From the IMG/VR virus record IMGVR_UViG_3300031718_000007, positions 1,789 to 65,788 of that record: 64,000 bases of DNA, one strand, 5' to 3'. This DNA comes from a virus (lineage: Duplodnaviria > Caudoviricetes). Positions 1-64,000 of the stretch are shown here, one piece after another; position 1 is the first letter of the stretch; every line of letters begins with the position of its first letter. Below the pieces are notes generated by a model, which was given only the letters and a program-made list of their open reading frames with translations, was not told the origin of the DNA and did not search any database. Both the position numbers and the translations under genes were made by a program.

Positions 1-94
1 GCAGCGGCGCCCGTGATCCCAGACGAACCTGACGACAGTGGCCCCACGTTACAGGGTGCTGTAACGCAAGCGGCGGCCGATCACGCAACAGTGG

Positions 95-331
95 ATGCAG
101 CTACAGAGGCGCAAAGTGACAACGCTTGATCTGGATGCGCTCACACCCGACGAGCTAGATGATGCGCGCAGGAAGCTGACGCATCGCCTGCGCGTGCGGC
201 TAGGCGATCTGCTCTTTCAGCATCTTGATCTGGAAGATGTTACCGCCGGCGACGCGGGGCTTGTTTCGAACGTGATGGAACGATTTTGCGCAGCCCAAGC
301 GAAAGCTGGTGGACCGGCGGACAAGAATTAG
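95..331 (+). CDS. hypothetical protein
   Basis: 78-aa ORF with natural-looking composition, convergent with and overlapping the 3' end of the Ntn protease gene. Confidence 0.45.
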   Translation: MQLQRRKVTTLDLDALTPDELDDARRKLTHRLRVRLGDLLFQHLDLEDVTAGDAGLVSNVMERFCAAQAKAGGPADKN

Positions 332-755
332 TATCGCGCCGGCAAGCCAGATGAATGGCTTCCACAGCATTCTTTCCACACTCGATTGCCACCAACGCGA
401 ATTTGCCGCCTGACCCACAGGCGGCAAATTTTTCACTTGCAGGGTAGAGACCGCCTTCCCAGACGCCTTTGCGGTGCATGCACTCAACATAATAGACCAT
501 GCCGTTCGGCATGATGAACAGTCCGTCAGTGTCACACTGGATATCGAGGATCGCCTTGCGGGTCGGCAGGTGCCGTGTCTGTTTGACCTTGTCGAAAAGC
601 GCGACCATGTCACGATGGTCACAGGCGCCGGCGAACCCCATCAGGCCGCCAGATGACAACCGATGGATTTTCGGCATGCGACTGTAGATGGTCTCGCCAG
701 ATGTAACTTGACTGTCGCTAGCGATGATCCCGTTGGCGTAAGCGATCGTCGTCAT
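240..755 (-). CDS. Ntn-hydrolase, HslV/proteasome beta-subunit-like threonine protease
   Basis: Start moved to MTTIAY (AAGGA SD upstream); N-terminal Thr, ASDSQ, K, GFAG and CGSGG match T1 peptidase motifs. Confidence 0.8.
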   Translation of the reverse strand: MTTIAYANGIIASDSQVTSGETIYSRMPKIHRLSSGGLMGFAGACDHRDMVALFDKVKQTRHLPTRKAILDIQCDTDGLFIMPNGMVYYVECMHRKGVWEGGLYPASEKFAACGSGGKFALVAIECGKNAVEAIHLACRRDTNSCPPVHQLSLGLRKIVPSRSKQAPRRRR

Positions 756-915
756 GGCCCTGGTCCTTTTTGAAAATTTTGCACACACCCATCGGATAGA
801 TCGGGTCTACCACTGCGGTGCAATGTGGTCCAGGACGAAACATCGTACACACCGAGCAGTGACGCGCCGGCGTGCCATGATCATAGTTCACAGCAGAATG
901 AGACTGCTTAGCCAA
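718..915 (-). CDS. HiPIP-like (high-potential 4Fe-4S) small protein
   Basis: VNY...CxxCxxF...C...IxPxGxCxxF four-Cys pattern; TTG start with AGAGGA SD right after the upstream stop. Confidence 0.7.
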   Translation of the reverse strand: MAKQSHSAVNYDHGTPARHCSVCTMFRPGPHCTAVVDPIYPMGVCKIFKKDQGHDDDRLRQRDHR

Positions 916-918
916 GGT

Positions 919-1320: not shown

Positions 1321-1351
1321 GATAGCACCTTCGTTATAGGCGATGTAACCC

Positions 1352-4300: not shown

Positions 4301-6493
4301 CTTGTCAGGCACAGAGGTCGGAATAAAATCCGGGTTCTCGTTCGGATGGGCAGCCACAGCCTTTTGGATCGCGTCGAGCGCACCCTGGCGCTTGGTCGCG
4401 AGCGCCGGCGTGTTCGCCACCATACCATTCACGGTCGGCCGGCGTCCCTCGGTGAATTCCTTGGACCGCGCGATTTGATCCAACTGACGGGCAATCGCGA
4501 TCTGCTGGTCCGGCGGCGCGGCCTGAAGACGCTGCGCAACACGCGACATGTTGTTATCAGCGGCGAACTGCAGCGCCTTCTGCACGATCTTTGGCACGCG
4601 GCCGGGCTTCGTTACAGGCGCTGTAACCTCCTGCGGCGGCGCCGTTAGCCGCTGCAGTATCTCGTCCTTGCCCATGTGATGGGTCATCTGATCATTGTCG
4701 GCCGCCTCGGGGTTCACATGCAGGTCAGTCGGCAGATCAGTCGGGTGCTCGCGCTCTGTGTTCGCCAGATACCCGTCAATCGTCTTCGTGTATTCACCCC
4801 AGTCAAGTCCAGCGCGTACGACCGCGGCGTGCTCGGCCGCGGTAGCGACCGTGTGCGCGTCCGGATACTTCATGCCGTTCGCCATCAGTAACTGCTCGAC
4901 CGTCTCATGGACAGCGAGCGGGCGCTGGAATTGCTCGGGGATGCTCGGGTCCACGTAGACCGGTCCGTTGATATCCTTCGACGAGTTCGCACCCGATGGC
5001 ATGGGGCGTGTCTCGATCGGGCGTGTCATCGCGTGCTCGGTCGCCGCCTGTACAAAGGGCGTTTCCACAATTTCCGCGATTTTCGGATGCAACTGTGGAA
5101 CAGCTTGCTGCGGCTGCATTTCTTGCTGGATTGCAGCGTTGCGCGTGGCGCGCGCCGGGGTCTGTGCTACCGGTTGAGCAGGTGCAGCCGGGGGCGGCTG
5201 CTTGAACGAGCCGTCCGGGTTGCGCTGCAGGAACGCCGGGATGCTTTCGTCGGTCGCGCCCAGACCAGTGTTGATCGGTGGAGTAGGAGGCTCGGCCGTG
5301 GCGGCAGGTGGCGCAGCGCTCGTAAGCGCAGCCGTGACCGTTGGATCAGTGTCGCCGACCGAGATATTGGGTTGCGACGGAGTAGTCTCGATACCTTTGG
5401 CCTGCGCGGGTGAGCCCTTGCCGTAATCGCGGCCAGGGTCAGACGGCCGTGCAGCAGTGCGCGCCACCATGGGGGCGCCGACTGGATTACCTGCGCCGGA
5501 AATTTCCGGGGCAGGCGCATTTTCTGCTGCGATACCCGGCGCTGTAGTGGTGAGATCATTGGCGACTTCGATATCCGATTTGCCGGCGCCTTCGGCTTCC
5601 TGACCTTGGAGATCGGGGCGACCCGCAGTTCCAGGCTCAGTCGCGATGGCATTGGGTACTTCGCCTGTGCCCGTGCCTTTGAGACCCGCCGCTGTGCTTG
5701 CCACACGGCCGCCGAGACCTGAGACCCAATCGCGCGCAACAGGAGCGGCAGCGCCCGCACCAGCGGCCAGAAGGACTTTTCCGGGGTCGACGGAGCCGTC
5801 ATTGTACGCCTCGTTGCCAGCTTCACCGGCACCCATGATAGCAGCGCTCACGGCCCGCGTGCCAGCGGAAGCCGCAGGGGCGTTCGCGCCGAGCGCGGTG
5901 CGGAGTATTTTTCCGCCGGCGCCCCCGATTTGGTTCAGTGCCTGGATATTTCCAGTGCCCAGCGACAGCAAGGTATCAAGAAGTCCCCCTGCTTCGCTGG
6001 CATACGGATGCTGCGAAACGTCGGCTTGTTCCTGGGCCGGGTTGAACGCGCTCGTCAGGGTGCCGGATGCGTTACGCAGGCCCAGCTTGTCGAGCACCCA
6101 GTCTTCGCCCTTGGATGCGAGATAGCCGCCGCCCAGCGCACCGGCCACACCGCCAGCGATTGCACCGGGAAGCCCGGCGCGCGCGCCGAGTTCAGTACCC
6201 GCCAGAGTATCGGCGGCGAGACTGCCGCCCACCACAGCGCCAGTCGTCGGAACCGCTTGCCGGATCGCACCGCGCGCCGCGGCGCCCAGCGCGCTGGGGT
6301 CCTGGATTGGAGGTTGCTGCTGTTGAAGCTGAAACCCAGGAGGCAACGGGGGCGCGCTGGATTGATCCCCCTCAAGCTGGAAGCCATCAGGAAGCGGAGG
6401 CGTGCTCGTGGGTGCAGACTGATCGCCCTGCATGACAAAGCCGTCAGGCAGGGGAGGCAATCCGTTTACTGCCCCGGTGGGATCGGGACCCAT
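1352..6493 (-). CDS. large internal virion / DNA-ejection protein (1713 aa)
   Basis: Last and largest of three Ala/Gly/Gln-rich ORFs after the tail nozzle; N-terminal LP[DP]GF repeats; internal HExxE domain. Confidence 0.75.
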   Translation of the reverse strand: MGPDPTGAVNGLPPLPDGFVMQGDQSAPTSTPPLPDGFQLEGDQSSAPPLPPGFQLQQQQPPIQDPSALGAAARGAIRQAVPTTGAVVGGSLAADTLAGTELGARAGLPGAIAGGVAGALGGGYLASKGEDWVLDKLGLRNASGTLTSAFNPAQEQADVSQHPYASEAGGLLDTLLSLGTGNIQALNQIGGAGGKILRTALGANAPAASAGTRAVSAAIMGAGEAGNEAYNDGSVDPGKVLLAAGAGAAAPVARDWVSGLGGRVASTAAGLKGTGTGEVPNAIATEPGTAGRPDLQGQEAEGAGKSDIEVANDLTTTAPGIAAENAPAPEISGAGNPVGAPMVARTAARPSDPGRDYGKGSPAQAKGIETTPSQPNISVGDTDPTVTAALTSAAPPAATAEPPTPPINTGLGATDESIPAFLQRNPDGSFKQPPPAAPAQPVAQTPARATRNAAIQQEMQPQQAVPQLHPKIAEIVETPFVQAATEHAMTRPIETRPMPSGANSSKDINGPVYVDPSIPEQFQRPLAVHETVEQLLMANGMKYPDAHTVATAAEHAAVVRAGLDWGEYTKTIDGYLANTEREHPTDLPTDLHVNPEAADNDQMTHHMGKDEILQRLTAPPQEVTAPVTKPGRVPKIVQKALQFAADNNMSRVAQRLQAAPPDQQIAIARQLDQIARSKEFTEGRRPTVNGMVANTPALATKRQGALDAIQKAVAAHPNENPDFIPTSVPDKQALVGRLQKMVDAATAANGGQDPLTAYKPRVKPPEWQMLKAAQRAITKPTPKNITDYIAAEKMLKAGGAADVQATTRIDADIAKKGFVPEGENEAQNIERETFDPIEPVAPGKDNSYVEAQNDLRSWLNELPNKDYSTLAENYDLHNELTEPADPAQLMDDMKATLAAGQRGRVEPHETPGVPKQIAGAPLGESEGAASAGTVRAPTAEEQAKYGGKLTPEQLAAYKAKKAAPKTAPGTLQGVQDAAAKFLGDNSGAVRNLLPYIFPKSRNPIADRVAEDLSHEFNVNEGTMRTMDGKLGANFAAGHPQLSDAEWTKVYRDMETQTPLGPKEQAVYDQYVKPLVDERQRLYNLAKKMGFKLPDEYNGNVANIPRARVPDAQPRDNDTPWSRNLSSWDGALQDRVFFALDDNAGQRLIFSMDENGNPVIIRNGAPTVLKSAPASFEGKLGDTIPLNVGGKKGTFTVDEATAHEITNATNGEVKFAEHPLIAYANSIRGMRAAIMRDNLLKRIQANTTVQGFSTTDAEKARTLGYKETQLEQLQKAPRSGKTVYYDPRLQQLFDDFRRPGVNEDALESLRNFAQNMAKPLYLLSPTFHVMNIAAQHFIGTAAMLAREPAKAGNVFRNFIPDLASAYKSVLSQDALQQEMRAAGGRPMYASQVFDHGVIQDMMKSAGIRISQRPGLWSKFAQASGIPIDQWGHSLMRASNKVMWAGNDILLTSLYQTAKRLGMSPQEAAAAAHNYIGAYRPDSPTFMGARWAQKILNDPAFSWFGPYHQDLWQSIGRTAKNIATPENPADWREAVGATAALGLLTYGIYPYILDPFAKMITGNQNATLGRRGAAALAQIPGELYEGEPNAYTQAGMNLFTPSIPLNTIWEATHNLDWKGQHVLTPGAPAVTQAAQGVDYAARALVPPYAQAAALARQQGVTVGAVLKKMLESGVGLKEPSDAAARYEAQQGKHNEAELRHREKAPEGFFEKVFNR

Positions 6494-10748: not shown

Positions 10749-13663
10749 TACACGTTCCCCAGTTCTTTCACAGAGGTCGCGATCTGCACGTTGGAAATGA
10801 TCACGCGGCCGTCAATCTCCCAAGCCCACTGTTCAGCTTTGAAGTCGCCAACGATGCGCAGCAACTCGCCGGACCGGCGGATTTCACGCGCGTCGACGAG
10901 GATCATTTCGCCGGTGCAGTCCACATCGGCGTAGGTCTTGATAATCCCCAACTGGTTGGCCGCGAGCGTGTTCCAACTAGGATCGTTGGCGCAGGCCTCG
11001 TTCGGGCAAGCGGCCTGGGCCGGCGTGTTCGGCGGCAGGGTGAAGAACACCCGGATCGCCGAGTAATTTTTCTTGGTATTTTGTTGATATATTTTGCTTT
11101 TCCAGGTGTACGGCGCCATCGTGTAATTGGTGGTGCTGAAGTCGTAGAAGTACACGTTGCCGGCCGAGATCACCATCCCGATCCCGGTCCACGGGTCACT
11201 GAAAAGGTTGTCGATATCCGTGCCCAGATGGCTCACCTGCGGGATGAACCCGAGCCTGTGGCCACCCGGCTGCGGCCAGATGCTGAACGACTGATTGTCC
11301 TGATCAAGTTCAATCGTGAAACCTTGCTGCGCGACAGAGGTATCCACAGGGGTCACCGCCGGCGGCGACACGCTGCCAAAGCAGAAATAGCACGACGCCA
11401 GGAAGATTGCGCGCGTGTACTTCTGCGGCGTCAGGGTCTGCCAGCCTTCGCGGGTGAACCACAAGTCAGTTGTGTTGCTCACGATCCCGGTGTTCGTCAC
11501 GTTCATGAGCCCGTTGGGCGACATGTAGACCACGGAGTTCTCGCCGCTGAGGATGCTTCCGCGGCTCATGCAGGGGGCGGACACAGGGCATTTCAGCGGC
11601 GTCATGGCGGCAGGGTTGATGCCAGTCAGCACGTACGGGTTCGCACCTGTGCATACCACCAGCGCGCCGTTCGCCACCCCGAGCCCGACGATCGGGTACT
11701 CCGTAGTCTGCACGTAGCCCGGCGGCCACGCGTGCGGGTGATACGGCTCGCAGAACCAAATCTCGTTCGCCTTGAAGCCGGCCATGATGCCGTTGGGCAA
11801 TGCGACCATACCCTGCAGGTTGGCAGGGGGCGGGAACCAGTTCGTGCTCGCGATCTGGTTGTTCAGCGACACGTAGTTGTCCGGCAACGCGTCGGTGAAG
11901 CTTTCCGTCGTCGAGGCGAGCCCGCTGATCGGGTTACCGTTGACTGTAACGGTGGGCGACCCGAGGTCAGACAAGCCGCCATACCACGGCCCCGCGGTGT
12001 AGTTCAGGCTGAAGGCCCAGTCAGACAGGCGCAAGGTGGCAACATAGAAGAACACAGCGCCGCCACCGGTCCCCGTGACTGTTCTGTAGAGGTTGATGTA
12101 CGAGAGATCGCGCAGGATACCCATGTCGTCGGCAAGGGGCGGGAATATCTGGGTGATCGACCAGACGCCATTGCTCCATCCGTTGACCAGCGTAGCCGGC
12201 GACGGCGGACCTTCCTCGTTATACGCGCTCTGATAGGTATAGAAATACGCACGGCCCTCGATCACGTCGCTGGTCAAGAGATCAGCGAACATCTGGATAT
12301 TCGCGTTGCCCGCGCTCGCCGCCGGCGCTTCACCGGGCGGACCATTCGCAAACGTGTTCGCAAACGTGCTCATGCTGGCGCCCTGCGCCGCCTGCCACGT
12401 CTCCGCGCTATCGGTCATGAAACCGATCCAGTATTGCGTGTTCGCGTTGAGCCCGGATGGGTTCTCAAATGCACTCGATGTGCTCACGTTCGCCGTGATG
12501 CCAGTGACGACAAAGCCAGTGTTCAGCAGTTCGCCGGGCACGCCGCCATTATCGGCGTAGAGCAGCGCTGCGAAGTTGCAGTTCACGTCCGTGGACTGCG
12601 GGATGATCTGCACGTCTTGTATCTGGGTGCCGCCTGTCGGCTTGATCGGAATGAGATACACATAGTTGCCCAGGCCGCTGACCGTACCTGCAGCGGCGTT
12701 CGGAGCGCCCATCTGCAGGTTGTTACCGCCGCCTGTAACGCTCACACCGGGCGAGCACCCGGGAGCCGGCACGCCAAGCTGCCACGGTGGCATGCCTGCA
12801 ACGATGCGAGCGCGTGTGTTGTACTGCGGCGTCTGGCTCGGGCTCGCGAAGTAATAGCGGTCCCAGCTATCGTTGACCACCTGGGAGCGGACCACGTTCG
12901 TGTCCGGGTCGGGGAATTCCAGCCACGTCGCCGGGCCGGTGATGATGTTGTTGAAATTTGGATTGCTGCCACCTTGATACGTCGTGGTCACGTCGGCGAA
13001 GGCGAGCAGGTCTTTGAGCCATGTAGTACGCACGTTTACGGTGCTCTCGGCCACACCGATCTCGTTAAACGACGTACCGAAGTCCACACTGCCAATCTGA
13101 AGATAGCTGTAATTAGTGCCACCGATATTCGCGACGCCAGTAGTAGAAGCAGGAAGCCCCGTAAGGGGTGTCGCGCCGGGCGGGTATGAAAGCACATTCT
13201 CGTTGGCCACCGTGAACGAACCATAGAGCACCCCCGAATTGGTGTTCTGCCCGCTGTCCGTCGTGAGGGCTGCCAGCGCGTTAGCCGCGCTCGCCGCCGT
13301 CGTAGCACCGATCAGGATTTGATAAGGAAAGCCAATCTGTCCGGGTATGCCGCCCGAAATTACACCAAGCGCATTGACCCATGTATAGGTGATCTCGCCA
13401 ATGGTGAACGTGTCACCGTTGTTGGGTTGCGCCTTAAAGACCAGATACGCGAGCGCTTGCGTCTCGCTGATCGTCGGCAGACGATACACGAAGCGCGCCG
13501 CGGAGTTGGTCAGCGTGCGCAAGAAAGATGGCACACGCCATCCCTTCAGCGCGCCGCTGAACAGATAAGCGTTTTGGCAGTCGGCGGCTTGGCCATTCGG
13601 GAGCAGGTGATCATCCCATGCCGGCAAACGCCCGCCGAACTGCTCAAGCTTAAGGGCCGGCAT
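10748..13663 (-). CDS. tail nozzle / stabilisation protein (beta-propeller type)
   Basis: 971 aa, beta-rich, GIMAGF..NEIWFCEPYHPHAWP motif, located just before the ejection proteins. Confidence 0.7.
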   Translation of the reverse strand: MPALKLEQFGGRLPAWDDHLLPNGQAADCQNAYLFSGALKGWRVPSFLRTLTNSAARFVYRLPTISETQALAYLVFKAQPNNGDTFTIGEITYTWVNALGVISGGIPGQIGFPYQILIGATTAASAANALAALTTDSGQNTNSGVLYGSFTVANENVLSYPPGATPLTGLPASTTGVANIGGTNYSYLQIGSVDFGTSFNEIGVAESTVNVRTTWLKDLLAFADVTTTYQGGSNPNFNNIITGPATWLEFPDPDTNVVRSQVVNDSWDRYYFASPSQTPQYNTRARIVAGMPPWQLGVPAPGCSPGVSVTGGGNNLQMGAPNAAAGTVSGLGNYVYLIPIKPTGGTQIQDVQIIPQSTDVNCNFAALLYADNGGVPGELLNTGFVVTGITANVSTSSAFENPSGLNANTQYWIGFMTDSAETWQAAQGASMSTFANTFANGPPGEAPAASAGNANIQMFADLLTSDVIEGRAYFYTYQSAYNEEGPPSPATLVNGWSNGVWSITQIFPPLADDMGILRDLSYINLYRTVTGTGGGAVFFYVATLRLSDWAFSLNYTAGPWYGGLSDLGSPTVTVNGNPISGLASTTESFTDALPDNYVSLNNQIASTNWFPPPANLQGMVALPNGIMAGFKANEIWFCEPYHPHAWPPGYVQTTEYPIVGLGVANGALVVCTGANPYVLTGINPAAMTPLKCPVSAPCMSRGSILSGENSVVYMSPNGLMNVTNTGIVSNTTDLWFTREGWQTLTPQKYTRAIFLASCYFCFGSVSPPAVTPVDTSVAQQGFTIELDQDNQSFSIWPQPGGHRLGFIPQVSHLGTDIDNLFSDPWTGIGMVISAGNVYFYDFSTTNYTMAPYTWKSKIYQQNTKKNYSAIRVFFTLPPNTPAQAACPNEACANDPSWNTLAANQLGIIKTYADVDCTGEMILVDAREIRRSGELLRIVGDFKAEQWAWEIDGRVIISNVQIATSVKELGNV

Positions 13664-48471: not shown

Positions 48472-48593
48472 AAGCAAGCCTTGGGTGCGTTTTTGCAATT
48501 TCACGCCCAAGGCGCTGCGGCTGGCGCGGGTTTGGTGGCTCCGGCCCGCGCCAGCATTACCCTACGGAGCCTCAATCTCACGGAGCTACGAAA

Positions 48594-49751: not shown

Positions 49752-49945
49752 AGCGTCCCCGACCACTGCGACAGGTTACAGCGGCGGTAACGGCCGCCGC
49801 TGTTTCTTCGCTTCGGATGGTGCGCAACATTAACGAAACATTTATGCCAGATAAAGCCTTCGATGACCTAATCCAATGGCGGTTAGGCGATCCGAGGTTT
49901 TGGTATGAAGGCCAAGCTTCGAGAGTGAAACCAAAGGAGCCTCAC

Positions 49946-50275: not shown

Positions 50276-50382
50276 TATAGCGGCGTCGACCACCGCCGCA
50301 ATACGAAAGCGCCGCCGAGCGCTTCTAAATGACCTGCGCATGGTGTATCACGAAGGAAAATCAGTACCACTAGGAGCCAACA

Positions 50383-52253: not shown

Positions 52254-52283
52254 GTCTACCAACCCAAACCAAAGGAGCCAATC

Positions 52284-52976: not shown

Positions 52977-53115
52977 CGCATGAAGGCATAAAGGCAATTT
53001 ATCGCGACTACTGGTATCGGACGCACGGCGTTCACGCGCCTGCTCACTTGCCAGAGTTTGTGGCATGGCGTAGACAATGGCAACGCGACCTCCGTATCAG
53101 ATCGGAAGAACTCCT

Positions 53116-55011
53116 ATGCCGCAGCAACTCTGGTTCTTCGACCTCGAAACATATTACGACGACGGATATTCGCTGCGCCGAATGACGCCACCAGAGTATA
53201 TCCTGGATGACCGCTATGAAGGTATCATGCTCGCAGCCGCGGAAGGCGAAAACCCCTCGTTCATGGTCGATGGCCCAGACATTGGACGCTTTCTATCATC
53301 CCTTCCTATTCGGGACACCACAACCGTATGCTTCAACGCATTGTTTGATAATTGCGTTCTTGCGTGGCGGTATGGTTTCGTTCCAGCGAGAATGCTGTGC
53401 TCGATGCGGATGGCAGTGGCGACGCGAGGGCATACGCTGCAGCGACATTCCCTGGCCGCAGTCAGCCAAAGCCTTGGAGTGGGGACTAAGGGGACGGAAA
53501 TTGAGAACGTTAAGGGGCTTCACCGCGAGCAAATTATCGCGTCTAGGCGGTGGAACGCGTTCACGCGTTACGCGCTCAACGACAACGACCTGAACCGTAG
53601 TATTTTTTTCGAGTGCGCGAAAGATTTCCCTAGTAGCGAGCGCCGGGTGATGGACAGGGTTCTACGCTGTGCCATAGAGCCGCGCTTTCAGATCAACATC
53701 CCTCTACTCAAACAGCATCTGGTGGACTTGGAAGTGAGCAAAACGCAGCTTCTTGCGCAAGCCGGAGTAACGGACCCTTCGGAGTTGCGTAGCGCCACTA
53801 AGTTTCAGGCGTTGCTCGAAGCGCGCGGCGTGGACGTGGAAATGAAAACGACTACCACGGGCAACGTGGCGCCGGCGTTCGCCAAGACTGACGAGTTCAT
53901 GGAGAAGTTGCAAGCGCACGAGGACCCGGTAGTCTCCGCGCTCGCGTGCGCGCGGTTAGGAGTACGGTCGACGATCGAGCAATCGCGCGGCCAGCGCATG
54001 CTGCAGATCGCGTCGCTGAACTGGGACGCCGTTACAGCGCCTGAAACGGGCGTGCCGCTGATGCCGTTCCCGCTGCGATATAGCGGCGCCCATACGCATC
54101 GGCTGTCGGGCGACTGGCTGATCAACACGCAGAACCTGCCGACTGGCCGAGGCGGGAGCACGAGCAACACGCTGCGAAAAGCGATTGTTGCGCCGTTCGG
54201 GCACGAGGTAGCGATAGCGGACTTGGAACAAATCGAGTGCCGCGTGAACGCTTGGTTTTGCGGGCAGCAAGACCTGCTCGACGTGTTCGCGCAGGGGCTC
54301 GACCCGTACGCACTGCTCGCAAGCGCGATTTTCGGTTTCAAGGTCGACAAGAAAGTGCATCTGCTGGAACGTTTTATCGGGAAATCGGGCGTACTAGGGC
54401 TCGGCTTCCAGTGCGGGGCAACGAAATTCTACAACATGGTGATACGCTCGGCGCGCGTGATGGGGATGGACATGAATGCGCTGCTGCAGGTATGGACGCC
54501 GGAGTTAGCGCAACGCACCGTGGACATTTATCGCCGGCAGAACGCGGCGATCCGTCGGATGTGGGCTGCGTTGGACCTTGCGCTGGCCAGCGCATGGTCC
54601 GGGCGTAGCGGGCCTGTCCAGATTGGGCCTGTGGAGATCGGCTACGGCTACGTGCTGCTGCCGAACGGCATGAAGATGAACTATCAAGTCAAGAGCACCG
54701 ACACGAATGCCGGGCTGAGCTACATTTACGAGGGCCGCGAGCATCCGATCTACGGCGGGAAATTTCTCGAAAACATTGTGCAGGCCCTGGCGCGGATCAT
54801 CTTGATGAACGCTGCCATGCGCATCTGGGATCGTGGTTATCCGTTCAAGCTGCAGGCGCATGACGAGCTAGGTTGGGTGGTGCGCACTGAGGACAAGGAT
54901 GAAGCTATGCGTGTGATCCACGAGGAAATGATCCGGCCGCCATCGTGGGCGCGAAGGATACCGCTTGGCGCGGCGGTCTCATGCGGAGCATCGTATGGCG
55001 ACGCGAAGTAG
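53116..55011 (+). CDS. DNA polymerase, family A, with 3'-5' exonuclease
   Basis: DLET, FNALFD, T.RLSG..N.QNLP, DLEQIE.R, R..GK...LGLGF, HDE. Confidence 0.92.
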   Translation: MPQQLWFFDLETYYDDGYSLRRMTPPEYILDDRYEGIMLAAAEGENPSFMVDGPDIGRFLSSLPIRDTTTVCFNALFDNCVLAWRYGFVPARMLCSMRMAVATRGHTLQRHSLAAVSQSLGVGTKGTEIENVKGLHREQIIASRRWNAFTRYALNDNDLNRSIFFECAKDFPSSERRVMDRVLRCAIEPRFQINIPLLKQHLVDLEVSKTQLLAQAGVTDPSELRSATKFQALLEARGVDVEMKTTTTGNVAPAFAKTDEFMEKLQAHEDPVVSALACARLGVRSTIEQSRGQRMLQIASLNWDAVTAPETGVPLMPFPLRYSGAHTHRLSGDWLINTQNLPTGRGGSTSNTLRKAIVAPFGHEVAIADLEQIECRVNAWFCGQQDLLDVFAQGLDPYALLASAIFGFKVDKKVHLLERFIGKSGVLGLGFQCGATKFYNMVIRSARVMGMDMNALLQVWTPELAQRTVDIYRRQNAAIRRMWAALDLALASAWSGRSGPVQIGPVEIGYGYVLLPNGMKMNYQVKSTDTNAGLSYIYEGREHPIYGGKFLENIVQALARIILMNAAMRIWDRGYPFKLQAHDELGWVVRTEDKDEAMRVIHEEMIRPPSWARRIPLGAAVSCGASYGDAK

Positions 55012-55166: not shown

Positions 55167-55529
55167 ATGCACGAGCAAAAGCTGCTGCTGGAAGATCACT
55201 CTCAAGAAATACCCCCGTTCCTGCAACGCAACGAGGACGGGACAATGAAGTACCCCGGCATCCCGGTGGCGGTTACAGCAAATGTAACGCCGCCAACGCG
55301 CGAGGAAAACCGCCATCTTGACAAGTGGGGCTGGCCGGTCAACCCTGCGGATGAGAAGGCCCGCAAACTGCTGCTGGCAGATCAGGATCGCGTGCAATCA
55401 ATCAAGAAAGCCGAGAGCACGAAGGCCAGCCGTGCCAAACAGGCCGCGGAGGCTGAGATCAAACGCAAGGCGCTGCTGGCCAGCAAGGCTAACTTCTTGC
55501 AGCATTTCAAGTGGGACTGGGAAAAATGA
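55167..55529 (+). CDS. hypothetical protein
   Basis: EIPPFL.R motif; GGAAGG SD. Confidence 0.55.
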   Translation: MHEQKLLLEDHSQEIPPFLQRNEDGTMKYPGIPVAVTANVTPPTREENRHLDKWGWPVNPADEKARKLLLADQDRVQSIKKAESTKASRAKQAAEAEIKRKALLASKANFLQHFKWDWEK

Positions 55530-55747: not shown

Positions 55748-56106
55748 AACTCTATCTGGCGGGACCAATGCGTGGTATCCCGAACTTTAACTTCCCGGCC
55801 TTCGACTATGCGGCAGCGAAGCTGCGAGCCGCCGGGTTTGAAGTATTCTCACCGGCTGAGCGTGACCGGCAAACGTACGGTAGCGAGATCGAGATCAACC
55901 CGACCGGCGATGAGAGCAAAGTTGCCAATCCGGAATGCACGATCAATGACTGCATGGCGGCAGATTGTGAGTGGATTTGCCGCAACGCAAATGCCATTGC
56001 GCTTCTCCCCGGTTGGGAGAAATCTTCTGGCGCGAACGCCGAATTGGCGCTAGCAAAGGCCCTCGGTCTCACTGAGATCACGCTGGGCAAGGAGTATGTG
56101 CAGTGA
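55744..56106 (+). CDS. DUF4406 / nucleoside 2-deoxyribosyltransferase-like protein
   Basis: YLAGPM.G..FN..AF, SPA, LPGWE.S.GA..E...A. Confidence 0.85.
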   Translation: MKLYLAGPMRGIPNFNFPAFDYAAAKLRAAGFEVFSPAERDRQTYGSEIEINPTGDESKVANPECTINDCMAADCEWICRNANAIALLPGWEKSSGANAELALAKALGLTEITLGKEYVQ

Positions 56107-56576
56107 GCCTACTCCATGATAAAAACTGTCAGTGCTCGCGCTGCGAGGATAAACGCAATGCTGCTAGGGCTAACGCCGGTATAGGCATGTACGCGGATCG
56201 AGACGCCCTTTCCCATGCGGCAGGACCCTCAAAAGCTGCACCCTTTGTGCCGCTGGCTAAGGCCAACTCTGCCCAGCGAAAAATGCTGCCAGTGGCGAGC
56301 GGAGTGCTGGATTACTTCCCAGACGCGCTCTCCGCAGTGGCGTATGTCTCTTATCTGGGCAACCAGAAGCACAATCCCGGCGAGCCGCTGCACTGGGTTC
56401 GCGGCAAGTCGGGCGATCACATCGACTGCGCGGCCCGCCACATGCTGCGGCGGACTGAACTGGACGCCGACGGTATCATGGAAGCCGCCGAAATGGTCTG
56501 GCGCAGCCTCGCGTGGCTTCAGTTGGAGATCGAGCGGGCGCACAAGCTTCCGCCGTCGCCGGGTTCAACCACGTAA
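56103..56576 (+). CDS. dATP/dGTP diphosphohydrolase domain protein (DUF5664-like)
   Basis: YFPDAL.AVA.VS..G..KH.PG..L.W...KS.DH.D...RH. Confidence 0.75.
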   Translation: MSLLHDKNCQCSRCEDKRNAARANAGIGMYADRDALSHAAGPSKAAPFVPLAKANSAQRKMLPVASGVLDYFPDALSAVAYVSYLGNQKHNPGEPLHWVRGKSGDHIDCAARHMLRRTELDADGIMEAAEMVWRSLAWLQLEIERAHKLPPSPGSTT

Positions 56577-56590
56577 CAGCGGGCTGTAAC

Positions 56591-57615: not shown

Positions 57616-57741
57616 ACCTGCTACGATCACTAAAACGTTACTTGTGGCTTAGAGCTAAGCCAGCCTACGATCCCGTTGCGACCAAACAGCGCGCAGCCGC
57701 TGCACTCGCCGCGGCCGATGCTTGGTTGGAGGGAGAGGGTG

Positions 57742-58065
57742 ATGCTGATCCGAACCGACTTTCAGACGAGGCTCGTGCACGCGACCGCAGGCGAACGTAT
57801 AATTTATCACACGGGAGACCTGATGTTTGCTAGGGAACGCGGGTCCCAGCTTGACGCCACTGCCAACGCCGCCTGGGACGCGCACCTAGCCGGGGAATGT
57901 CTCTTAGTCCAGCGGCGCGTCGGCCCGAGCACCTGGGAGTACATCGCGATCCGCACTCCTGCGGGCTATCCGAAGCCGGAGTATACCGGCGCCTATGATG
58001 CTGATTTTCTCACCGGCAAACAGCCGCGATCGGGCGGCGTTCGTACTGCGTTACAGCGGAGGTAA
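57742..58065 (+). CDS. hypothetical protein
   Basis: YHTG.L...L.QRR....YIA motif; GGAGAGG SD. Confidence 0.6.
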   Translation: MLIRTDFQTRLVHATAGERIIYHTGDLMFARERGSQLDATANAAWDAHLAGECLLVQRRVGPSTWEYIAIRTPAGYPKPEYTGAYDADFLTGKQPRSGGVRTALQRR

Positions 58066-58069
58066 CACG

Positions 58070-58724: not shown

Positions 58725-60269
58725 ATGCAAGTCCTCGTAAGCAAACCTAATCAGGCTCTCGTGCTGCCGCCCGAGCCGGCGGTGCTCTCGATGTTCCCAG
58801 GAGCACCGACGTTACAGGGCGGTAACTTGATCGTGCCGCACGGCGTTCGCGAGACGCTGATCATGCGGCACCTGGGCGTCGACGTTCCGAGCCCGATGCT
58901 GTGTTACTATGACTGGGTGGGCGGCAAGCCCTATGCCGTGCAGCGCGCGACGTGCAAGCTGCTCACCGAGCACCCGCGGGCGTACGTGCTCAACGACCTC
59001 GGCACCGGCAAGACGAAGACGGTATTATGGGCGTGGGACTATCTGAACAAGTGCGGCCTCGCCGGCAAGCTGTTGGTGGTGGCTCCCCTGTCGACGCTGA
59101 ACTTTGTCTGGGCGCACGAAGTGTTCTCTACGCTGCCGCACCGTCGCTGTGTGATCCTGCACGGCACGAAGGCCGAGCGACTGGCGCGGCTCGCGACCGA
59201 CGCGGATATCTACGTGGTCAACCATGACGGCCTAAAGGTGATCGAGGAAGCGCTGCACTGTCGCGCGGACGTAGACGTGTTGGCCATCGACGAGCTAGCG
59301 GCCTATCGAAACAATTCAGAGCGCTCAAAACGCATGCGCAAGTTCGCAGCGAGATTTACCTACGCCTGGGGGATGACCGGCAAGCCCATGCCGCACGAGC
59401 CAGTGGACGTGTGGGGGCAGTGCATGATCCTCACCCCGCACACGGTTCCCAAGTATCGTAACCGCTGTAAAGAAATTCTGATGAACAAACAGAGCCAGTT
59501 CGTCTGGACGCCTAAGCCGGACGCGGTCGAGCGCGCATTTCAAATGATGCAGCCGAGCGTGCGGTACACGCTCCAAGATGTGACAGAACTGCCTGACGTG
59601 ACGTATCGAGACATAGACGTAGGCATGAGCGCGGAGCAGGAAAAAACCTACAAGAAAGTTGCGACGACGATGCAGGCAATGGTGAAGAACCACCAGATTA
59701 CCGCCGTCAACGCCGGCGCCGCCATGAATAAGCTGCTGCAGATCGCCGGCGGCTGGGTCTATACTCAGAACCCGGATTTTATCCGTGTGGACCCGACACC
59801 GCGGCTGGTCGCGCTCGCAGATATCTTATCAGATGCCACCGAGAAGGTGCTGGTCGCGATCCCGTATCGGCATATGATCGACGGCGTGAGCAAGATACTC
59901 AGCCTGAAGGGCGTCGAGATCGAACATTGTGTGGTGCATGGTGACACCAAGGACCGCGACGTGCTGTTCAACCTATTTCAGAACACAGACAAATATCCGG
60001 TCATGTTGGTGCATCCGCAGTGCGTCGCGCACGGACTGACGTTGACGCGAGCCAGCACGATCGTCTGGTATCTGCCGACCACGTCGCTGGAAATCTACGA
60101 CCAGTTCAACGCGCGCATTCGGCGCATAGGCCAGAAATACAAACAACAGGTGTTGCACCTGTTCGGCACGCCGGTCGAGAAGAAAGTCTACCGGATGCTC
60201 CGGCATCACCAGAAGATGCAGAACATGTTCCTGCAAATGGTGGAAGATGCGACGAGCGAGGCGATTTAG
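58725..60269 (+). CDS. SNF2-like SF2 helicase
   Basis: GTGKT, IDEL, MTG.P, HGLTL, Q...RI.R.GQ. Confidence 0.9.
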   Translation: MQVLVSKPNQALVLPPEPAVLSMFPGAPTLQGGNLIVPHGVRETLIMRHLGVDVPSPMLCYYDWVGGKPYAVQRATCKLLTEHPRAYVLNDLGTGKTKTVLWAWDYLNKCGLAGKLLVVAPLSTLNFVWAHEVFSTLPHRRCVILHGTKAERLARLATDADIYVVNHDGLKVIEEALHCRADVDVLAIDELAAYRNNSERSKRMRKFAARFTYAWGMTGKPMPHEPVDVWGQCMILTPHTVPKYRNRCKEILMNKQSQFVWTPKPDAVERAFQMMQPSVRYTLQDVTELPDVTYRDIDVGMSAEQEKTYKKVATTMQAMVKNHQITAVNAGAAMNKLLQIAGGWVYTQNPDFIRVDPTPRLVALADILSDATEKVLVAIPYRHMIDGVSKILSLKGVEIEHCVVHGDTKDRDVLFNLFQNTDKYPVMLVHPQCVAHGLTLTRASTIVWYLPTTSLEIYDQFNARIRRIGQKYKQQVLHLFGTPVEKKVYRMLRHHQKMQNMFLQMVEDATSEAI

Positions 60270-60497: not shown

Positions 60498-60911
60498 ATG
60501 GACATTGACAAAAAGGTGGAACAGTTCATCGCACTGCGCGACGCGCGCCGTGATCTGAAAAAGAACTACGAAGATACTGACCGGGGTTTACGAGTTCTTC
60601 AGGAAACTCTGGAAGGACAGTTATCAGCGTTCATGAGCGCGAACAAAACAGAGAACTTGAAGACCGCCCATGGGACATGCTACACGACTGTCAGATATTC
60701 AGCCTCGCTCGCAGATGCAGATGCCTTCATGAACTTTGTGATAAGCAATCAGGCCTATGACCTGCTGGATCGGCGGGCGAACGCCAACGCGGTGCGCGAC
60801 TATCTGTCCGAGCACCCCAAATCAACAGTACCCGGCTGCAACCTCAGCGCCTTGGAGCATGTCGGGGTCCGTCGCAAATCAGCTAACGGCAAGAGCGACA
60901 ACGACGAGTAA
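60498..60911 (+). CDS. conserved coiled-coil replication-module protein
   Basis: KT..GT...D...F...LL..R...PG pattern. Confidence 0.65.
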   Translation: MDIDKKVEQFIALRDARRDLKKNYEDTDRGLRVLQETLEGQLSAFMSANKTENLKTAHGTCYTTVRYSASLADADAFMNFVISNQAYDLLDRRANANAVRDYLSEHPKSTVPGCNLSALEHVGVRRKSANGKSDNDE

Positions 60912-60946
60912 CAGGCGCTGTAACGCATCCTCGAAAGGAGAACCCA

Positions 60947-62245
60947 ATGGGTCAAGAACTCGTGATCCCCGGCACGTTCAAGGGGCCGGCAAAAGCGTTC
61001 CAGCAGCTTGCTGGAAAAGGTGACAGCCTCGCAGTTGGCATCGGCCAGAGCTACGGCGTGCTCAACTACAAGGGCAAAGTCTGGTCGCTGCGCTACCGCG
61101 GCGAAAAGAAAACGTTCGTGCGGCCGGATGACGGCACGCCGGCGAACTATCTCGATGTGATCATCCTCGGGCAGGCGAAGACCAAGTCCAAGTCCTTCTT
61201 CGCCAAATATGACCCGAACAGTGGCGACAGCGGCGACCGGCCGATCTGCTCGTCCATTGACGGCATCCTGCCGGACGATGACGTGACGCAGAAGCAAGCG
61301 GAAAGCTGCTCTCTGTGCCCCCGCAACGTCTGGAAGACTGACCCGGCGACTGGCCGGCGGGGCCGCGAATGCACGGATTACAAGCGCCTTGCAGTGCTTG
61401 TGCTCCCGCCGCAGACCCGGGCGATCCTGGGCCAGCCGCTTATGGAGGCTGTGTTCCTGCGCGTGCCGCCCGCATCGCTGAACTCGCTCGCGATCATGGG
61501 CGACACGATGGAGAAGCAAGGCTATCACTTTTCGAGCTACATCACGCGGATCACGTTCGACCCGCAGAAATCGTGGCCCGAAATGGTGTTCAAGCCGGTG
61601 CAGGAACTGACTGATGCCGAGGCCCCGGTGATCTTCGAATTGATGGGGGATGACCTCGTCAAGCGCATCACGGAAGGTGATATCTCTCGACGCAACAACG
61701 GTGAGGACGGCGTAGGCATTCAGGTGATCCCGCCCGGACAGAGCGCGTTACAGAACGCTCCGCAGACCTTGCAGGCGGCGCAACCGCAGCCGGGAGCGCC
61801 CTTGAGCCCTTTGCAGAACGCATCCGCTGGCGCAACCTCGCCGCCCGCCGCGGCGCCGCCTCCCCAACCGGGGTCTTCCATTATCGTGCCCCAGGCTCCC
61901 GTACAGGCCACAGCCTTGCATACCGAGGCATCTGCCCCGCCTGCTATTACCAATGGGGCACAGATGAACGGTGGCGCATTCGGCGGCTTGAGTGCCCCGC
62001 CATCCGCGTCGCCGGCGGATGGACAGCGCCTCCAAGCACAGCCGTCTGTGGCGGATACGGGCACTGTGGCGGATACGGGCATTCTGTCTGGTGGTGCGAA
62101 TGGTGTGATCCCTTCCGACCATAAGGCGGCCCCATCGGCACCCCCGGCAGTGGCCGTCGCGTCGAATTCTGACGCTGGTGTAGCGGAGGAAAGTGACGCC
62201 GATCTGGACGCACGCATCGCAAGCATCCTCGCCAAAAAAGCGTAA
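60947..62245 (+). CDS. putative ssDNA-binding or annealing protein
   Basis: P.C.S.DG..P...C..CP.N...C, LRVP.ASL; disordered acidic tail. Confidence 0.6.
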   Translation: MGQELVIPGTFKGPAKAFQQLAGKGDSLAVGIGQSYGVLNYKGKVWSLRYRGEKKTFVRPDDGTPANYLDVIILGQAKTKSKSFFAKYDPNSGDSGDRPICSSIDGILPDDDVTQKQAESCSLCPRNVWKTDPATGRRGRECTDYKRLAVLVLPPQTRAILGQPLMEAVFLRVPPASLNSLAIMGDTMEKQGYHFSSYITRITFDPQKSWPEMVFKPVQELTDAEAPVIFELMGDDLVKRITEGDISRRNNGEDGVGIQVIPPGQSALQNAPQTLQAAQPQPGAPLSPLQNASAGATSPPAAAPPPQPGSSIIVPQAPVQATALHTEASAPPAITNGAQMNGGAFGGLSAPPSASPADGQRLQAQPSVADTGTVADTGILSGGANGVIPSDHKAAPSAPPAVAVASNSDAGVAEESDADLDARIASILAKKA

Positions 62246-62262
62246 AGCTGGACAGGTGAGGG

Positions 62263-62646
62263 GTGTCCACTCCGCGGGAACGAGCAAGAGAGAGCCGTCG
62301 TAAATGGGCGGCCTCTCCTAAAGGACAGGCGTGGCTCGCGGTGCATCATCGTGGGCCGACCTGGAACGCACGACAGTGTGAACTGCGCCGCATTCGTCTG
62401 TATGGGCTTTCTAATGCAGCCGTTGAAAATCTATTGCGGCAACAGCACCGACAATGTAAAATTTGTAGAAAGCCTCTCTCCAAATCCGTTTGTGTTGTTG
62501 ATCATAACCATAGAACAAACAAGGTTAGAGGCCTGCTTTGTCGAAAATGCAACGGAGGTTTAGGACAGTTTCAAGATGATCCGGCGATTGTGATGGCCGC
62601 CGTAGAATATCTTGCAAAGGATTTTTCAAATGCCAACGCCTCGTGA
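62263..62646 (+). CDS. endonuclease VII-like nuclease
   Basis: YGL, C.IC, VDHNH....VRGLLC..CN..LG.F.D; lower GC. Confidence 0.85.
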   Translation: MSTPRERARESRRKWAASPKGQAWLAVHHRGPTWNARQCELRRIRLYGLSNAAVENLLRQQHRQCKICRKPLSKSVCVVDHNHRTNKVRGLLCRKCNGGLGQFQDDPAIVMAAVEYLAKDFSNANAS

Positions 62647-64000
62647 TTTTTTAGAACGGGTGCTAGCTTGGCCTGCCGAAGGGGAGCCGGGTTTTTGTAA
62701 CCTTCACTGGAACAGTCAACGCGTGAACATGGCCGGTCGCCCATTCACGAAACTGGATGACATGATGGGTCTCGTGCAGTGGGGCGCGGTGAACCCGTCC
62801 GCGATGAAGGATATCTGGTTCTGCACGAGCACCCAGGCTGCGACCGGCAAGAGCAAGGCCACTGGAAAGATCATCGCCGCTCGTCACGCCGACATGGCGC
62901 TGAAGCTGAAATCACTTTGGTTAGATGTTGATGTTAAAGAGGAAAAGGGATATGCGACGCTCAACGAAGCGCTCGACGCCGTCAACGCCTTTGTCGCTGC
63001 AGCAGGCCTACCAGCGCCGTCTGCGCTGGTACTCTCTGGCGGGGGTGTACACGTCTACTGGATTAGCGATCGTGCGCTTACTACGACAGAGTGGCGACCT
63101 TTCGCCGCGGGCCTGCGAGCAGAAGCTGAACGACTTGGTCTCAAATGCGATTATGGCCTCACGACGGACCCTGCGCGCATCCTCCGCGTCCCGGGCACGT
63201 TCAACCACAAAACGATCCCACCGAAAGTTGTCAAGCTTGCGGCGCTCGGCGCCAGCTATGACTTCGCCACCGCGCCAGGACTTTCGGGGCTTGCGGCTCT
63301 CGCGCCGACCGTTACAGCGGCTGTAACCGCCGATGCCGCGTTCGATCTTTCAGGGTTCAGCGGTAAGATGGCAAGCGCATTCTCGCACCTGGACCCGCAT
63401 GACAGTCTCTCTGCAGGGATCAACACCTATGACGAAACGCCCCTCAACCCCGACGCTGTATTTCTATACTGCCCACACTTCCAACGCGCGGCCGTTGAGC
63501 ACGGACGGGACTTTCCACAAGGGCTGTGGATGCTCGACATGCTCGCAGCTACTTTCATGGATGACGGTCGCCGATGGGGACATTTTCTTTCCAGAGGATA
63601 CGCCGGGTATACACGAGACGAAACTGATAAGATGTATGACCGCAAGGTTCGGGATCGTGAAAGTGCGGGTCTTGGATGGCCATCTTGTAGCGCATTCGAG
63701 AACGAAGGTTCTAAAGATTGCAAGGGATGCATCTTCCATAACAAGATCAGATCACCACTTAACCTTGCCGAGCGCCAAACACCGGCCGCCCTTCCAGCAC
63801 CGCAGCCAGTCCCGCTAGCCCCCTTGCCGCCCGAGGACCTGGACGATCTGCCGACTGGGTGGGTGTACGGATCAGACGGCATCATCAACGAGATCGTGGC
63901 CGAGGAAGTGGACGGCCAGATGGTGGATAGGCTCTACCCGCTGTTCATGTCCCACCTGCGACGGTTCAAGGTATCAGGGTCGAGCAGCGGCGGGGCGGGT
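62630..64000 (+). CDS. primase-polymerase (AEP/RepB-like) with Cys-containing C-terminal region, truncated by the window end
   Basis: Translated in part by hand from ATG 62630: WLDVD, SGGGVHVYW, ARILRVPGT.N.K, GWPSC...C..C. Confidence 0.8.
   Translation, partial: MPTPRDFLERVLAWPAEGEPGFCNLHWNSQRVNMAGRPFTKLDDMMGLVQWGAVNPSAMKDIWFCTSTQAATGKSKATGKIIAARHADMALKLKSLWLDVDVKEEKGYATLNEALDAVNAFVAAAGLPAPSALVLSGGGVHVYWISDRALTTTEWRPFAAGLRAEAERLGLKCDYGLTTDPARILRVPGTFNHKTIPPKVVKLAALGASYDFATAPGLSGLAALAPTVTAAVTADAAFDLSGFSGKMASAFSHLDPHDSLSAGINTYDETPLNPDAVFLYCPHFQRAAVEHGRDFPQGLWMLDMLAATFMDDGRRWGHFLSRGYAGYTRDETDKMYDRKVRDRESAGLGWPSCSAFENEGSKDCKGCIFHNKIRSPLNLAERQTPAALPAPQPVPLAPLPPEDLDDLPTGWVYGSDGIINEIVAEEVDGQMVDRLYPLFMSHLRRFKVSGSSSGGAG

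Follow-up and report, generated by a model that had tools for sequence, protein, structure and literature searches.

Genome-wide 'private' palindromes have already been described in a few phage groups, and arrays of this kind are not new as such. The closest precedent in print, going by the passages of the report that describe it, is the 17-bp repeat TGTTCGG-N3-CCGAACA of cluster O mycobacteriophages (Corndog and relatives), which is present in 34 copies in Corndog, is absent from the host and was proposed to be recognized by a dimeric binding protein (PMC4351075). Here we describe a comparable array, built on the word GTTACAG-N(2-4)-CTGTAAC, in a phage from soil metagenomes, hereafter G000, within a window of 64,000 nucleotides (the whole stretch of DNA analysed, bases 1789-65788 of the 65,788-bp IMG/VR record IMGVR_UViG_3300031718_000007, which is rated complete). 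As far as the cluster O passages go, the two repeats are alike in having 7-bp inverted arms, a 3-bp gap and tens of copies genome-wide (34 in Corndog, 25 in G000), and in mixing intergenic, gene-end and mid-gene sites with no convincing orientation. They differ in word, host phylum and virion type, the nearest cultured relatives of G000 being Rhizobium podophages, and the arms are invariant in cluster O, whereas 17 of the 25 G000 sites carry a mismatch. A linked gene module, re-specification of the word between lineages and a candidate family of reader proteins were found on the G000 side, and none of them is reported in the cluster O passages (PMC4351075).

The stoperators of cluster A mycobacteriophages, in the portions of the two reports that deal with them, are asymmetric 13-bp sites bound by a monomeric repressor, mostly in one direction relative to transcription, and serve lysogenic immunity (PMC6550527; PMC9283540). 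Like them, the G000 sites are short, number in the dozens, occur on both genome arms and often occupy short intergenic gaps, and in both systems the motif varies among related phages, the stoperator motif tracking the phage's own binding protein according to the same portions (PMC6550527). Unlike stoperators, the G000 site is two-fold symmetric and unoriented, intergenic loops dividing 30:24, with a genic bias of 70:17 that is explained by codons. Nor, unlike stoperator phages, did G000 yield any integrase or HTH_3 repressor match in six frames, in searches that matched control genomes and in which the L5 gp71-type repressor model was not searched by name. The OB operator site of KorB is a palindrome. 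On the IncP plasmid RK2 (~60 kb), as the source passages have it, dispersed copies of OB are bound by the plasmid's own protein, which controls genes at a distance, KorB being a ParB-family CTPase clamp (PMC11790492). To the extent of that description, KorB-OB and G000 share a mobile replicon of ~60 kb with dispersed copies of one site; unlike KorB or ParB-parS systems, G000 showed no ParB_N match (PF02195) at E ≤ 1 in six frames, where the control matched 11 of 14 genomes. Finally, the temperate Streptomyces phage phiC31 carries a 17-bp conserved inverted repeat at many loci that is bound by its own repressor c.

No description of the G000 array was present in the literature found, taken as main texts without supplements. 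What is new here is the link to a gene module, a four-base specificity series, a candidate reader family and a cultured representative. We regard it as fairly probable that the sites are docking sites on duplex DNA for a protein that depends on the module.

Genome-wide array of palindromic sites in G000

Eight sites with perfect arms, GTTACAG-N(2-4)-CTGTAAC with actual spacers of 3 or 4 bp, start at window positions 48, 4611, 15264, 18981, 24700, 35317, 37745 and 63311, exactly where a first-pass annotation of the sequence had placed its eight perfect copies; the number expected from 100 dinucleotide shuffles was 0.00. Allowing spacers of 2-4 bp and up to two arm mismatches resulted in 25 sites (8 perfect, 15 with one mismatch and 2 with two), close to the 'about 24' counted in that annotation, and even with the spacer fixed at 3 bp and at most one mismatch 14 sites remained, compared with 0.00 in 100 shuffles. 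The spacer is 3 bp long in 16 sites, 4 bp in 7 and 2 bp in 2, and the 1,788 record bases outside the window contain no additional site. By hand count, 32 of the 36 canonical half-sites in the window lie within the 25 sites, so that the unit is the pair and not the half, and the dyad extends to c-GTTACAG...CTGTAAC-g in ~17 of 25 sites per side. The site is a dyad of 15-19 bp, including a central triplet that is itself symmetric (Y-S-R) across 283 sites from 23 non-redundant sequences. Arm mismatches concentrate at the inner positions, with 7 or 8 sites being A/C hybrids at position 6 and 5 carrying T at position 7; 17 of the 25 sites carry a mismatch, and compensated arm pairs were found in none. 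The sites are listed below in window coordinates, with the strand given as (.).

48-65 (.): spacer 4, perfect; in the primase/helicase-like gene ending at 129, peptide TLQGAVT
1333-1349 (.): spacer 3, two mismatches; 3 nt past the stop (1352) of the - strand 1713-aa gene
4611-4627 (.): spacer 3, perfect; 1713-aa virion gene, VTAPVT
11933-11950 (.): spacer 4, one mismatch (C, arm position 6); 971-aa internal virion protein gene, VTVNGN
12722-12739 (.): spacer 4, one mismatch; 971-aa internal virion protein gene, VTGGGN, orthologues V-x-G-G-G-x with no indel
15264-15280 (.): spacer 3, perfect; 144-aa ORF 14945-15379, VTAPVT
18981-18997 (.): spacer 3, perfect; 192-aa ORF 18545-19123, VTASVT
24700-24716 (.): spacer 3, perfect; 347-aa gene adjoining the major head protein gene, VTAPVT
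29517-29534 (.): spacer 4, one mismatch; 688-aa gene, ELHAPVT
35317-35333 (.): spacer 3, perfect; divergent region by the portal gene start, in the first 16 codons of the 230-aa ORF 35287-35979
37745-37762 (.): spacer 4, perfect; large terminase gene, LLQTPVT, orthologues L-x-Q-T-x-x-T with no indel
42317-42333 (.): spacer 3, one mismatch; leftward early block, small-ORF junction
44090-44106 (.): spacer 3, one mismatch; 154-aa ORF 43756-44220
45414-45430 (.): spacer 3, one mismatch; 126-aa ORF 45111-45491, VTFAVT
47716-47733 (.): spacer 4, one mismatch; 22 nt upstream of the ATG (47755) of the 238-aa gene, followed by AAGGAG
49775-49791 (.): spacer 3, one mismatch; 24 nt past the ATPase gene stop
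52055-52070 (.): spacer 2, one mismatch; 165-aa ORF 51756-52253
52961-52977 (.): spacer 3, one mismatch; the site's TAA (52974-52976) is the stop of the 230-aa module gene
54031-54047 (.): spacer 3, one mismatch; DNA polymerase gene, variable loop, VTAPET
55272-55288 (.): spacer 3, one mismatch; 120-aa ORF 55167-55529, VTANVT
56573-56590 (.): spacer 4, one mismatch; TAA 56574-56576 is the stop of ORF 56103-56576
58050-58066 (.): spacer 3, two mismatches; TAA 58063-58065 is the stop of ORF 57676-58065, next start 36 nt on
58811-58826 (.): spacer 2, one mismatch; helicase gene, TLQGGN
60908-60924 (.): spacer 3, one mismatch; TAA 60909-60911 is the stop of ORF 60498-60911, followed by AGGAG and ATG 60947
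63311-63327 (.): spacer 3, perfect; primase/helicase-like gene open at the window end, VTAAVT

The recurrent peptides reported earlier are all present: VTAPVT in the 1713-aa, 144-aa and 347-aa proteins and in the 230-aa ORF at 35287-35979, VTASVT in the 192-aa ORF, and VTFAVT, VTANVT and VTAAVT elsewhere. The names that had been attached to some of these genes (ejection protein, scaffold, TerS, fibre) found no support in family searches and rest on position. Copies read in other frames, on stop codons and between genes were likewise recovered.

Selection at the DNA level and placement of the sites

Shuffling of synonymous codons, with the peptides kept (200 shuffles), reduced the 8 perfect sites of G000 to a mean of 2.0 and the 23 sites with at most one mismatch to 3.8, and all surviving sites in G000 lay outside called genes, the gene calls being heuristic. 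The corresponding means for perfect sites in the related genomes G001, G003 and G007 were 7.3 of 24, 6.1 of 18 and 5.1 of 17, so that genic sites were lost in all four genomes in this check, which the annotation had proposed. Orthologue alignments of ten site-bearing stretches revealed substitutions at word-like places, such as L-x-Q-T-x-x-T in the terminase and V-x-G-G-G-x in the virion protein, and a six-codon insertion in none of the ten; the sites arose by point substitution, not insertion. Among four pairs of relatives, arm identity at aligned sites was 83/84, 69/71, 24/24 and 48/48, against backgrounds of 0.82, 0.81, 0.76 and 0.73, respectively. The arms are thus 97-100% identical between relatives at 72-83% nucleotide identity; site positions are not retained at greater distance. 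Judged from these comparisons, the sites are under purifying selection at the DNA level and kept in place among close relatives. The initial suggestion of such selection is borne out by the codon shuffles, the substitution pattern and arm conservation above background.

One reading frame is common to 14 of the 25 G000 sites, yielding similar peptides. By sequence logic, the V-T-x-x-V-T frame is preferred because, with a 3-bp spacer, the other frames give a TAA stop or Tyr...Cys-Asn; sites with spacers of 2 or 4 bp and those with the C variant of the right arm fall exactly where a TAA stop or a Cys codon is thereby avoided. At four G000 sites (52961, 56573, 58050 and 60908) the site's own TAA is the stop codon of the upstream gene, and several sites lie 20-40 nt ahead of the next start, before its Shine-Dalgarno sequence. 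Of the 283 sites, 96 are in frame 0, in 41 the motif's TAA terminates a gene, and 115 fall between genes or at their edges; the lineages in several of the counts are not independent. For the 132 sites scored in the 7 whole genomes, a start codon follows within 60 nt of the site centre in 25% of cases, compared with 6.7% for random positions. The smallest gap between sites ranges from 461 to 2363 bp and is above random in all seven genomes (P 0.0 to 0.046); the sites are spaced more evenly than random. In G000 the rightward early/replication block averages one site per 1.8 kb and the structural arm one per 4.8 kb, a ~2.7-fold difference in density.

Re-specified words in related phages

The G000 word, with at most one mismatch, was found in none of 80 loci fetched by means of the major head protein. 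The array genomes carry sister words in which arm position 6 is uniform per genome, the base being A for G000, C for G001, G007, G011 and G012, G for G003 and T for G006. G001 has 24 perfect GTTACCG sites and accepts spacers of 2, 3 and 4 bp; in G003 the word is TTACGG (18 perfect sites) and in G006 it is TTACTG (6 perfect sites, 21 with at most one mismatch); and perfect TTACCG sites number 17 in G007, 8 in G011 and 12 in G012. Eight relatives (G002, G004, G005, G008, G009, G010, G013 and G015) contain no perfect palindrome family and are called array-less on the basis of a screen for perfect palindromes only (arms of 5-7 bp, spacers of 0-8 bp). One further genome, G014, which is 74% complete, has a 238-aa family match, a few GGTTAC palindromes and only 2 matches to the pattern of the RHph type, and was excluded from the counts.

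Among 40 further loci fetched by the module ATPase, TACNG..CNGTA sites occur in 27 of 28 close loci, the lone miss being an 11-kb locus, and all 12 distant loci (ATPase 27-31% identical) show other palindrome families of the form TAC-inner arm-loop-inner arm-GTA. Their words include TTACGCC-N3-GGCGTAA (17 sites in 21 kb), TTACTC-N3-GAGTAA (24 in 21 kb) and T[AT]ACCT-N4-AGGTAA (21 in 21 kb); the counts of palindromes with 4-5-bp arms in loci L169, L171, L178 and L179 are raw counts without a shuffle control. Cultured Rhizobium phage RHph_TM27A has 17 GTTACC-N(4-8)-GGTAAC sites in its first 45 kb, and when 10 of the site positions were compared with the GenBank table, 4 were intergenic and 3 more lay within ~30 nt of a gene end. 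At the level of sequence, the word has been re-specified between lineages, and the collection amounts to a natural specificity series, with all four bases at one arm position and quite different inner arms in distant lineages.

In the distant loci L168 and L174/L177, a TAA and the Shine-Dalgarno sequence both fall within the 3' arm of the palindrome, with the next ATG 3-7 nt on. The left arm in these loci often carries the stop of the upstream gene, and the word occurs in almost every early junction (21-24 sites in 21 kb).

Linkage to an accessory early-gene module

The array is accompanied by a module of four early genes (window 47755-52976):

47755-48471, + strand: 238-aa all-helical protein ('p309' family), longest ORF from 47542; candidate reader
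48594-49751, + strand: 385-aa ATPase, phrog_1297, N4 gp24-like
50383-51759, + strand: 458-aa protein with DUF2201_N (putative metallopeptidase) and DUF2201 VWA-like domain, N4 gp25-like by position
52284-52976, + strand: 230-aa protein of no known family, directly upstream of the DNA polymerase gene

In tblastn searches, module genes were matched in the 6 other array genomes (the 230-aa gene in 5) and in none of the 8 array-less genomes, and six-frame profiles of the ATPase, the 238-aa and the 230-aa proteins matched 7/7 array genomes and 0/8 array-less ones. In the array-less genomes the block upstream of the polymerase gene is missing, and nothing common to them stands in its place. A tree of head protein, portal, terminase and polymerase requires at least three changes of the array trait. 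In it, G000 has G004, which lacks an array, as its sister, and G001 falls with G008 and G009, likewise without arrays; a single clade unites the remaining five array genomes. This placement provides three independent contrasts, in each of which module and array go together, and within this comparison arrays occur only together with the accessory module. An accessory four-gene module that comes and goes with the array in at least three independent contrasts gives the palindromes a genetic correlate and makes the question of their role testable.

Two of the module proteins have counterparts in N4-like phages, whose core genes include gp24 (AAA ATPase) and gp25 (vWFA). The module ATPase matches the 'N4 gp24-like' protein of LUZ7 at 22.6% identity (E 2e-12, tblastn; profile E 3.7e-17), and the 458-aa protein, which matches DUF2201 and DUF2201_N above their cut-offs, takes the place of gp25. 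The MoxR-VWA pair of N4-like phages, a gp24-homologous ATPase followed by a DUF2201 VWA/peptidase-like protein, is thus present in G000, and the order ATPase, small ORF, VWA/peptidase-like gene and replication genes is common to both. The gp24/gp25-like pair occurs widely among lytic phages; N4-like LUZ7 has the ATPase/VWA pair within its first 30 kb, which contain no palindrome array and no member of the 238-aa family.

A candidate reader protein

Members of the 238-aa family were found in every array lineage in which the locus reaches far enough, including RHph_TM27A (EVB29_028; profile E 4e-31); profile searches of the array-less genomes and of the first 30 kb of LUZ7 found none. The RHph_TM27A copy was visible by profile alone, tblastn of two family members against phage records returning no match. 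With both an array and the candidate reader gene EVB29_028, RHph_TM27A offers a cultured member of the group. The family comprises 644 representative clusters at E ≤ 0.001 among 1.84 billion representatives. The protein is an early gene product, predicted to be all-helical (pLDDT 86), and its prediction in two copies scored 0.79 against 0.00 for the best control, with at least 78% of contacts shared between runs and a partner pLDDT of at least 79. Among proteins of solved structure, 20 of 30 pairs of one chain and 1 of 23 single chains reached the mark set for this score, and the model supports the view that the 238-aa protein forms a dimer. The 230-aa module protein was detected in fewer lineages than the 238-aa family and likewise has no known fold.

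Column 76 of the 238-aa family holds E in the C-type phages, namely all 20 sequences and one further relative, and likewise in the G-type genome; it holds Q in A-type G000 and M in the T-type genome, a residue-to-base match that is suggestive. We tentatively name the 238-aa protein as the reader of the sites, an assignment that is possible rather than probable. Were it correct, about 640 sequence clusters of unknown proteins would gain a function and a programmable DNA-recognition scaffold would become available. A bolder extension, which we think unlikely, is that the protein is the first of a novel fold family that reads duplex DNA in a sequence-specific manner. Each lineage would re-program it, perhaps through one residue in contact with the base (E, Q or M against C/G, A or T at arm position 6), and the array would serve as a private 'self' label or as a global switch deciding how an encounter of related lytic phages within one cell turns out.

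Searches for relatives of the protein in the ESM Atlas led to unnamed viral clusters only. A weak ESM Atlas lead to the phiC31 repressor family, scored at 0.82, was rejected on an hhalign probability of 0.3%, and none of 26 family members matched any Pfam repressor model, PF25746 included; the 238-aa family thus shows no homology to phiC31 repressor c.

Proposed docking on duplex DNA and alternative explanations

In the reading that we prefer, a phage-encoded two-fold symmetric (dimeric) protein, encoded in the accessory early module, would dock on the duplex sites, the best single candidate being the 238-aa all-helical protein at 47755-48471. About one site per 2.6 kb would be maintained at the least costly places, that is between genes, across stop codons and in the V-T-x-x-V-T frame, and each lineage would re-tune the inner half-site bases together with its reader. 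Our first guess on the role is genome-wide transcription control by roadblock or long-range repression, as by stoperators or KorB; the second is marking of the genome as 'self'. It is from the patterns above that we infer binding of the sites by a protein, its identity as the 238-aa protein and its genome-wide action. The earlier proposal of a binding-site array for a dimeric protein, likened there to parS or stoperators, holds up in part: the symmetric-site reading fits best, given the Y-S-R centre, the lack of orientation bias at intergenic sites and the lack of a wobble signal. The array resembles stoperators in number, spread and variation between lineages, but not in asymmetry, orientation or a temperate repressor system, and with no ParB_N match it is not a ParB/KorB system. 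The accompanying remark that no obvious ParB or repressor is encoded agrees with six-frame searches, in which ParB_N, Phage_integrase and HTH_3 were without match.

Several observations weigh against docking by a module-encoded dimer and against the candidate chosen for it. All four module genes co-occur with arrays, so that the phyletic pattern singles out none of them, and the ATPase is separated from the array by LUZ7 alone. An asymmetric motif in the 'array-less' genomes would have escaped the perfect-palindrome screen. Acceptance of 2, 3 and 4-bp spacers in G000 and G001 is unexpected for a rigid dimer on B-DNA. Sequence searches of Pfam, PHROGs and the PDB returned nothing for the 238-aa or the 230-aa protein, neither of which has a recognizable DNA-binding fold or family, and fold searches were weak (best Foldseek E 0.53 and 0.59; best VIA Z 6.5 over 51 residues). 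The residue-to-base match rests on one lineage per base. Lastly, a site lies just upstream of the reader gene in 7 of 23 cases, compared with 78 of 571 other genes (P 0.03, from lineages that are not independent), which supports autoregulation weakly at best.

One alternative is that the sites act as single-stranded RNA or DNA hairpins, be it as an N4-type promoter hairpin, an mRNA processing or stabilizing stem-loop before ribosome-binding sites, or a lagging-strand priming signal. We find this improbable, and duplex recognition is clearly favoured over it, even though the perfect sites fold as 7-bp RNA stems (-7 to -8.9 kcal/mol), spacers of 2-4 nt are tolerated in G000 and G001 and arm position 6 changes jointly on both arms between lineages. 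Many intergenic sites are 3-12 nt ahead of a Shine-Dalgarno sequence, and two distant lineages show overlap of the 3' arm with both the Shine-Dalgarno sequence and the stop codon upstream. The module ATPase is, moreover, related to N4 gp24, and N4 uses hairpin promoters; a T7/N4-type RNA polymerase domain (PF00940) was matched neither in G000 nor in any of 14 control genomes. Yet one-mismatch sites on the sense strand comprise 21 G-T wobbles versus 25 C/A mismatches, with no enrichment of wobbles, the mismatches in 17 of 25 G000 sites break pairs, with no compensated pair, and the folding of two one-mismatch sites is not better than that of shuffled sequences. A hairpin would have no need of a symmetric loop such as the Y-S-R seen here, a search of Rfam gave no match, and intergenic loops lack orientation (30:24, P 0.50). 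The genic loop bias of 70:17 follows from stop and Trp codons in the loop frame; an early sense-strand bias of 47:18, taken as hairpin evidence, was dropped when the larger set confined the bias to genic sites. That the whole pattern is a by-product of composition, of the recurrent peptide V-T-A-P-V-T or of a small inserted element is already refuted by the shuffle, codon-shuffle and alignment controls. The 14 of 25 sites that share one frame and similar peptides would speak for it, but shuffles yield zero sites and codon shuffles that keep the peptides still lose them, sites also occur in other frames, on stops and between genes, the orthologue alignments contain no 6-codon insertion, and the frame preference follows from the stop and Cys codons that the other frames would create.

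Two further explanations retain docking by a protein and change its purpose or its origin. In one, which differs from transcription control through docked proteins in function only, the job of the sites is to mark 'self', and an activity of the module attacks or silences DNA lacking the word, from the host or a co-infecting relative, much as Chi protects against RecBCD. Even whole-genome coverage without large gaps or clustering, the accessory nature of a module gained or lost at least three times, specificity that differs among close relatives as expected under phage competition, the presence of an ATPase and a peptidase-like VWA protein in the module, and an exonuclease gene (35991-37103) in 5/6 other array genomes versus 1/8 array-less ones all speak for such a mark. 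We nevertheless judge it unlikely as the main role: no link of the module to a nuclease or exclusion activity was found, MoxR-type ATPases are not, to our knowledge, known as DNA translocases, the ~2.7-fold site density in the early/replication block relative to the structural arm is not predicted by a pure marker, and the gp24/gp25-like pair also occurs in N4-like phages without arrays. It is very unlikely that the sites are instead targets of a host protein, such as an alphaproteobacterial global regulator mimicked or exploited by the phage. The nearest cultured relatives do infect Rhizobium, the phage encodes a weak OmpR/CtrA-type winged-helix protein (Trans_reg_C 25.9 bits, cut-off 26.2) and the outer half-sites are one helical turn apart; however, arrays track the phage module and not the core phylogeny, the word differs among close relatives, and the winged-helix ORF is matched in 6/8 array-less genomes too. 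In 185,579 species, one genome each, the 19-bp form of the site was found in 85 stretches, scattered singly over unrelated taxa with the exception of 12 from one Neomarinimicrobiota metagenome-assembled genome (MAG) and two from one Acidovorax contig.

Genome organization and other features

G000 carries a podovirus-like gene set (major head protein, portal, internal virion proteins, large terminase, DNA polymerase A, helicase and a primase-like protein). Genes are on the - strand up to 35180, followed by a short + block at 35287-38603, a leftward early block at 38600-44220 and a rightward early/replication block that begins at ~44639 and continues past the window end. Its closest cultured relatives are Rhizobium phages of the RHph_TM27A group (podophages), with 55% portal identity, and megablast of 8 kb of G000 gave no nucleotide match in 50,697 phage records. 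The ORF open at the window end (62612-64000, 463 codons) and the ORF at the record start (record 70-1917; window 1-129) share one frame, and the record therefore looks like a circular permutation cut within the primase/helicase-like gene; joined across the record ends, this gene would encode ~1,100 aa, the counterparts in G004 and RHph_TM27A having 1,021-1,027 aa.

The winged-helix ORF (39428-40153, - strand, 241 aa) has a weak OmpR/CtrA-type match (Trans_reg_C 25.9 bits vs cut-off 26.2) and no detected receiver domain, and was matched in 11/15 related genomes compared, including 6/8 array-less ones. The 370-aa exonuclease gene (phrog_284; 35991-37103, + strand), which sits between a small ORF and the large terminase gene, has its single array-less occurrence (1/8, against 5/6 other array genomes) in G015.

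The region 44400-44570, which probably is an origin or early control region, contains three GTAGTTAC copies opposed to four GTAACTAC copies (period 8) around an AT-rich stretch, followed by a promoter-like TTGACT-N17-TAAAGA ahead of the rightward early genes. Although these iterons and the dispersed word both contain GTTAC, the idea that GTAGTTAC/GTAACTAC form a loading site linked to the word was dropped: the iteron-like repeats of relatives are unlike those relatives' own dispersed words, and the GTTAC shared in G000 is thus not taken as a loading site.

The Candidatus Neomarinimicrobiota MAG has the exact 19-bp G000 form on 12 contigs (L211, L212, L218, L224, L232, L236, L249, L253, L256, L279, L282 and L287), three times paired at a distance of 31 or 62 bp; these copies are an unrelated repeat family of that genome. 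Short-repeat counts in G000 are dominated by collagen-like triplet repeats (CCAGTCGG, GGCCCGAC and similar) at 17010-21000 and 26000-32800, and the relatives are alike in this respect.

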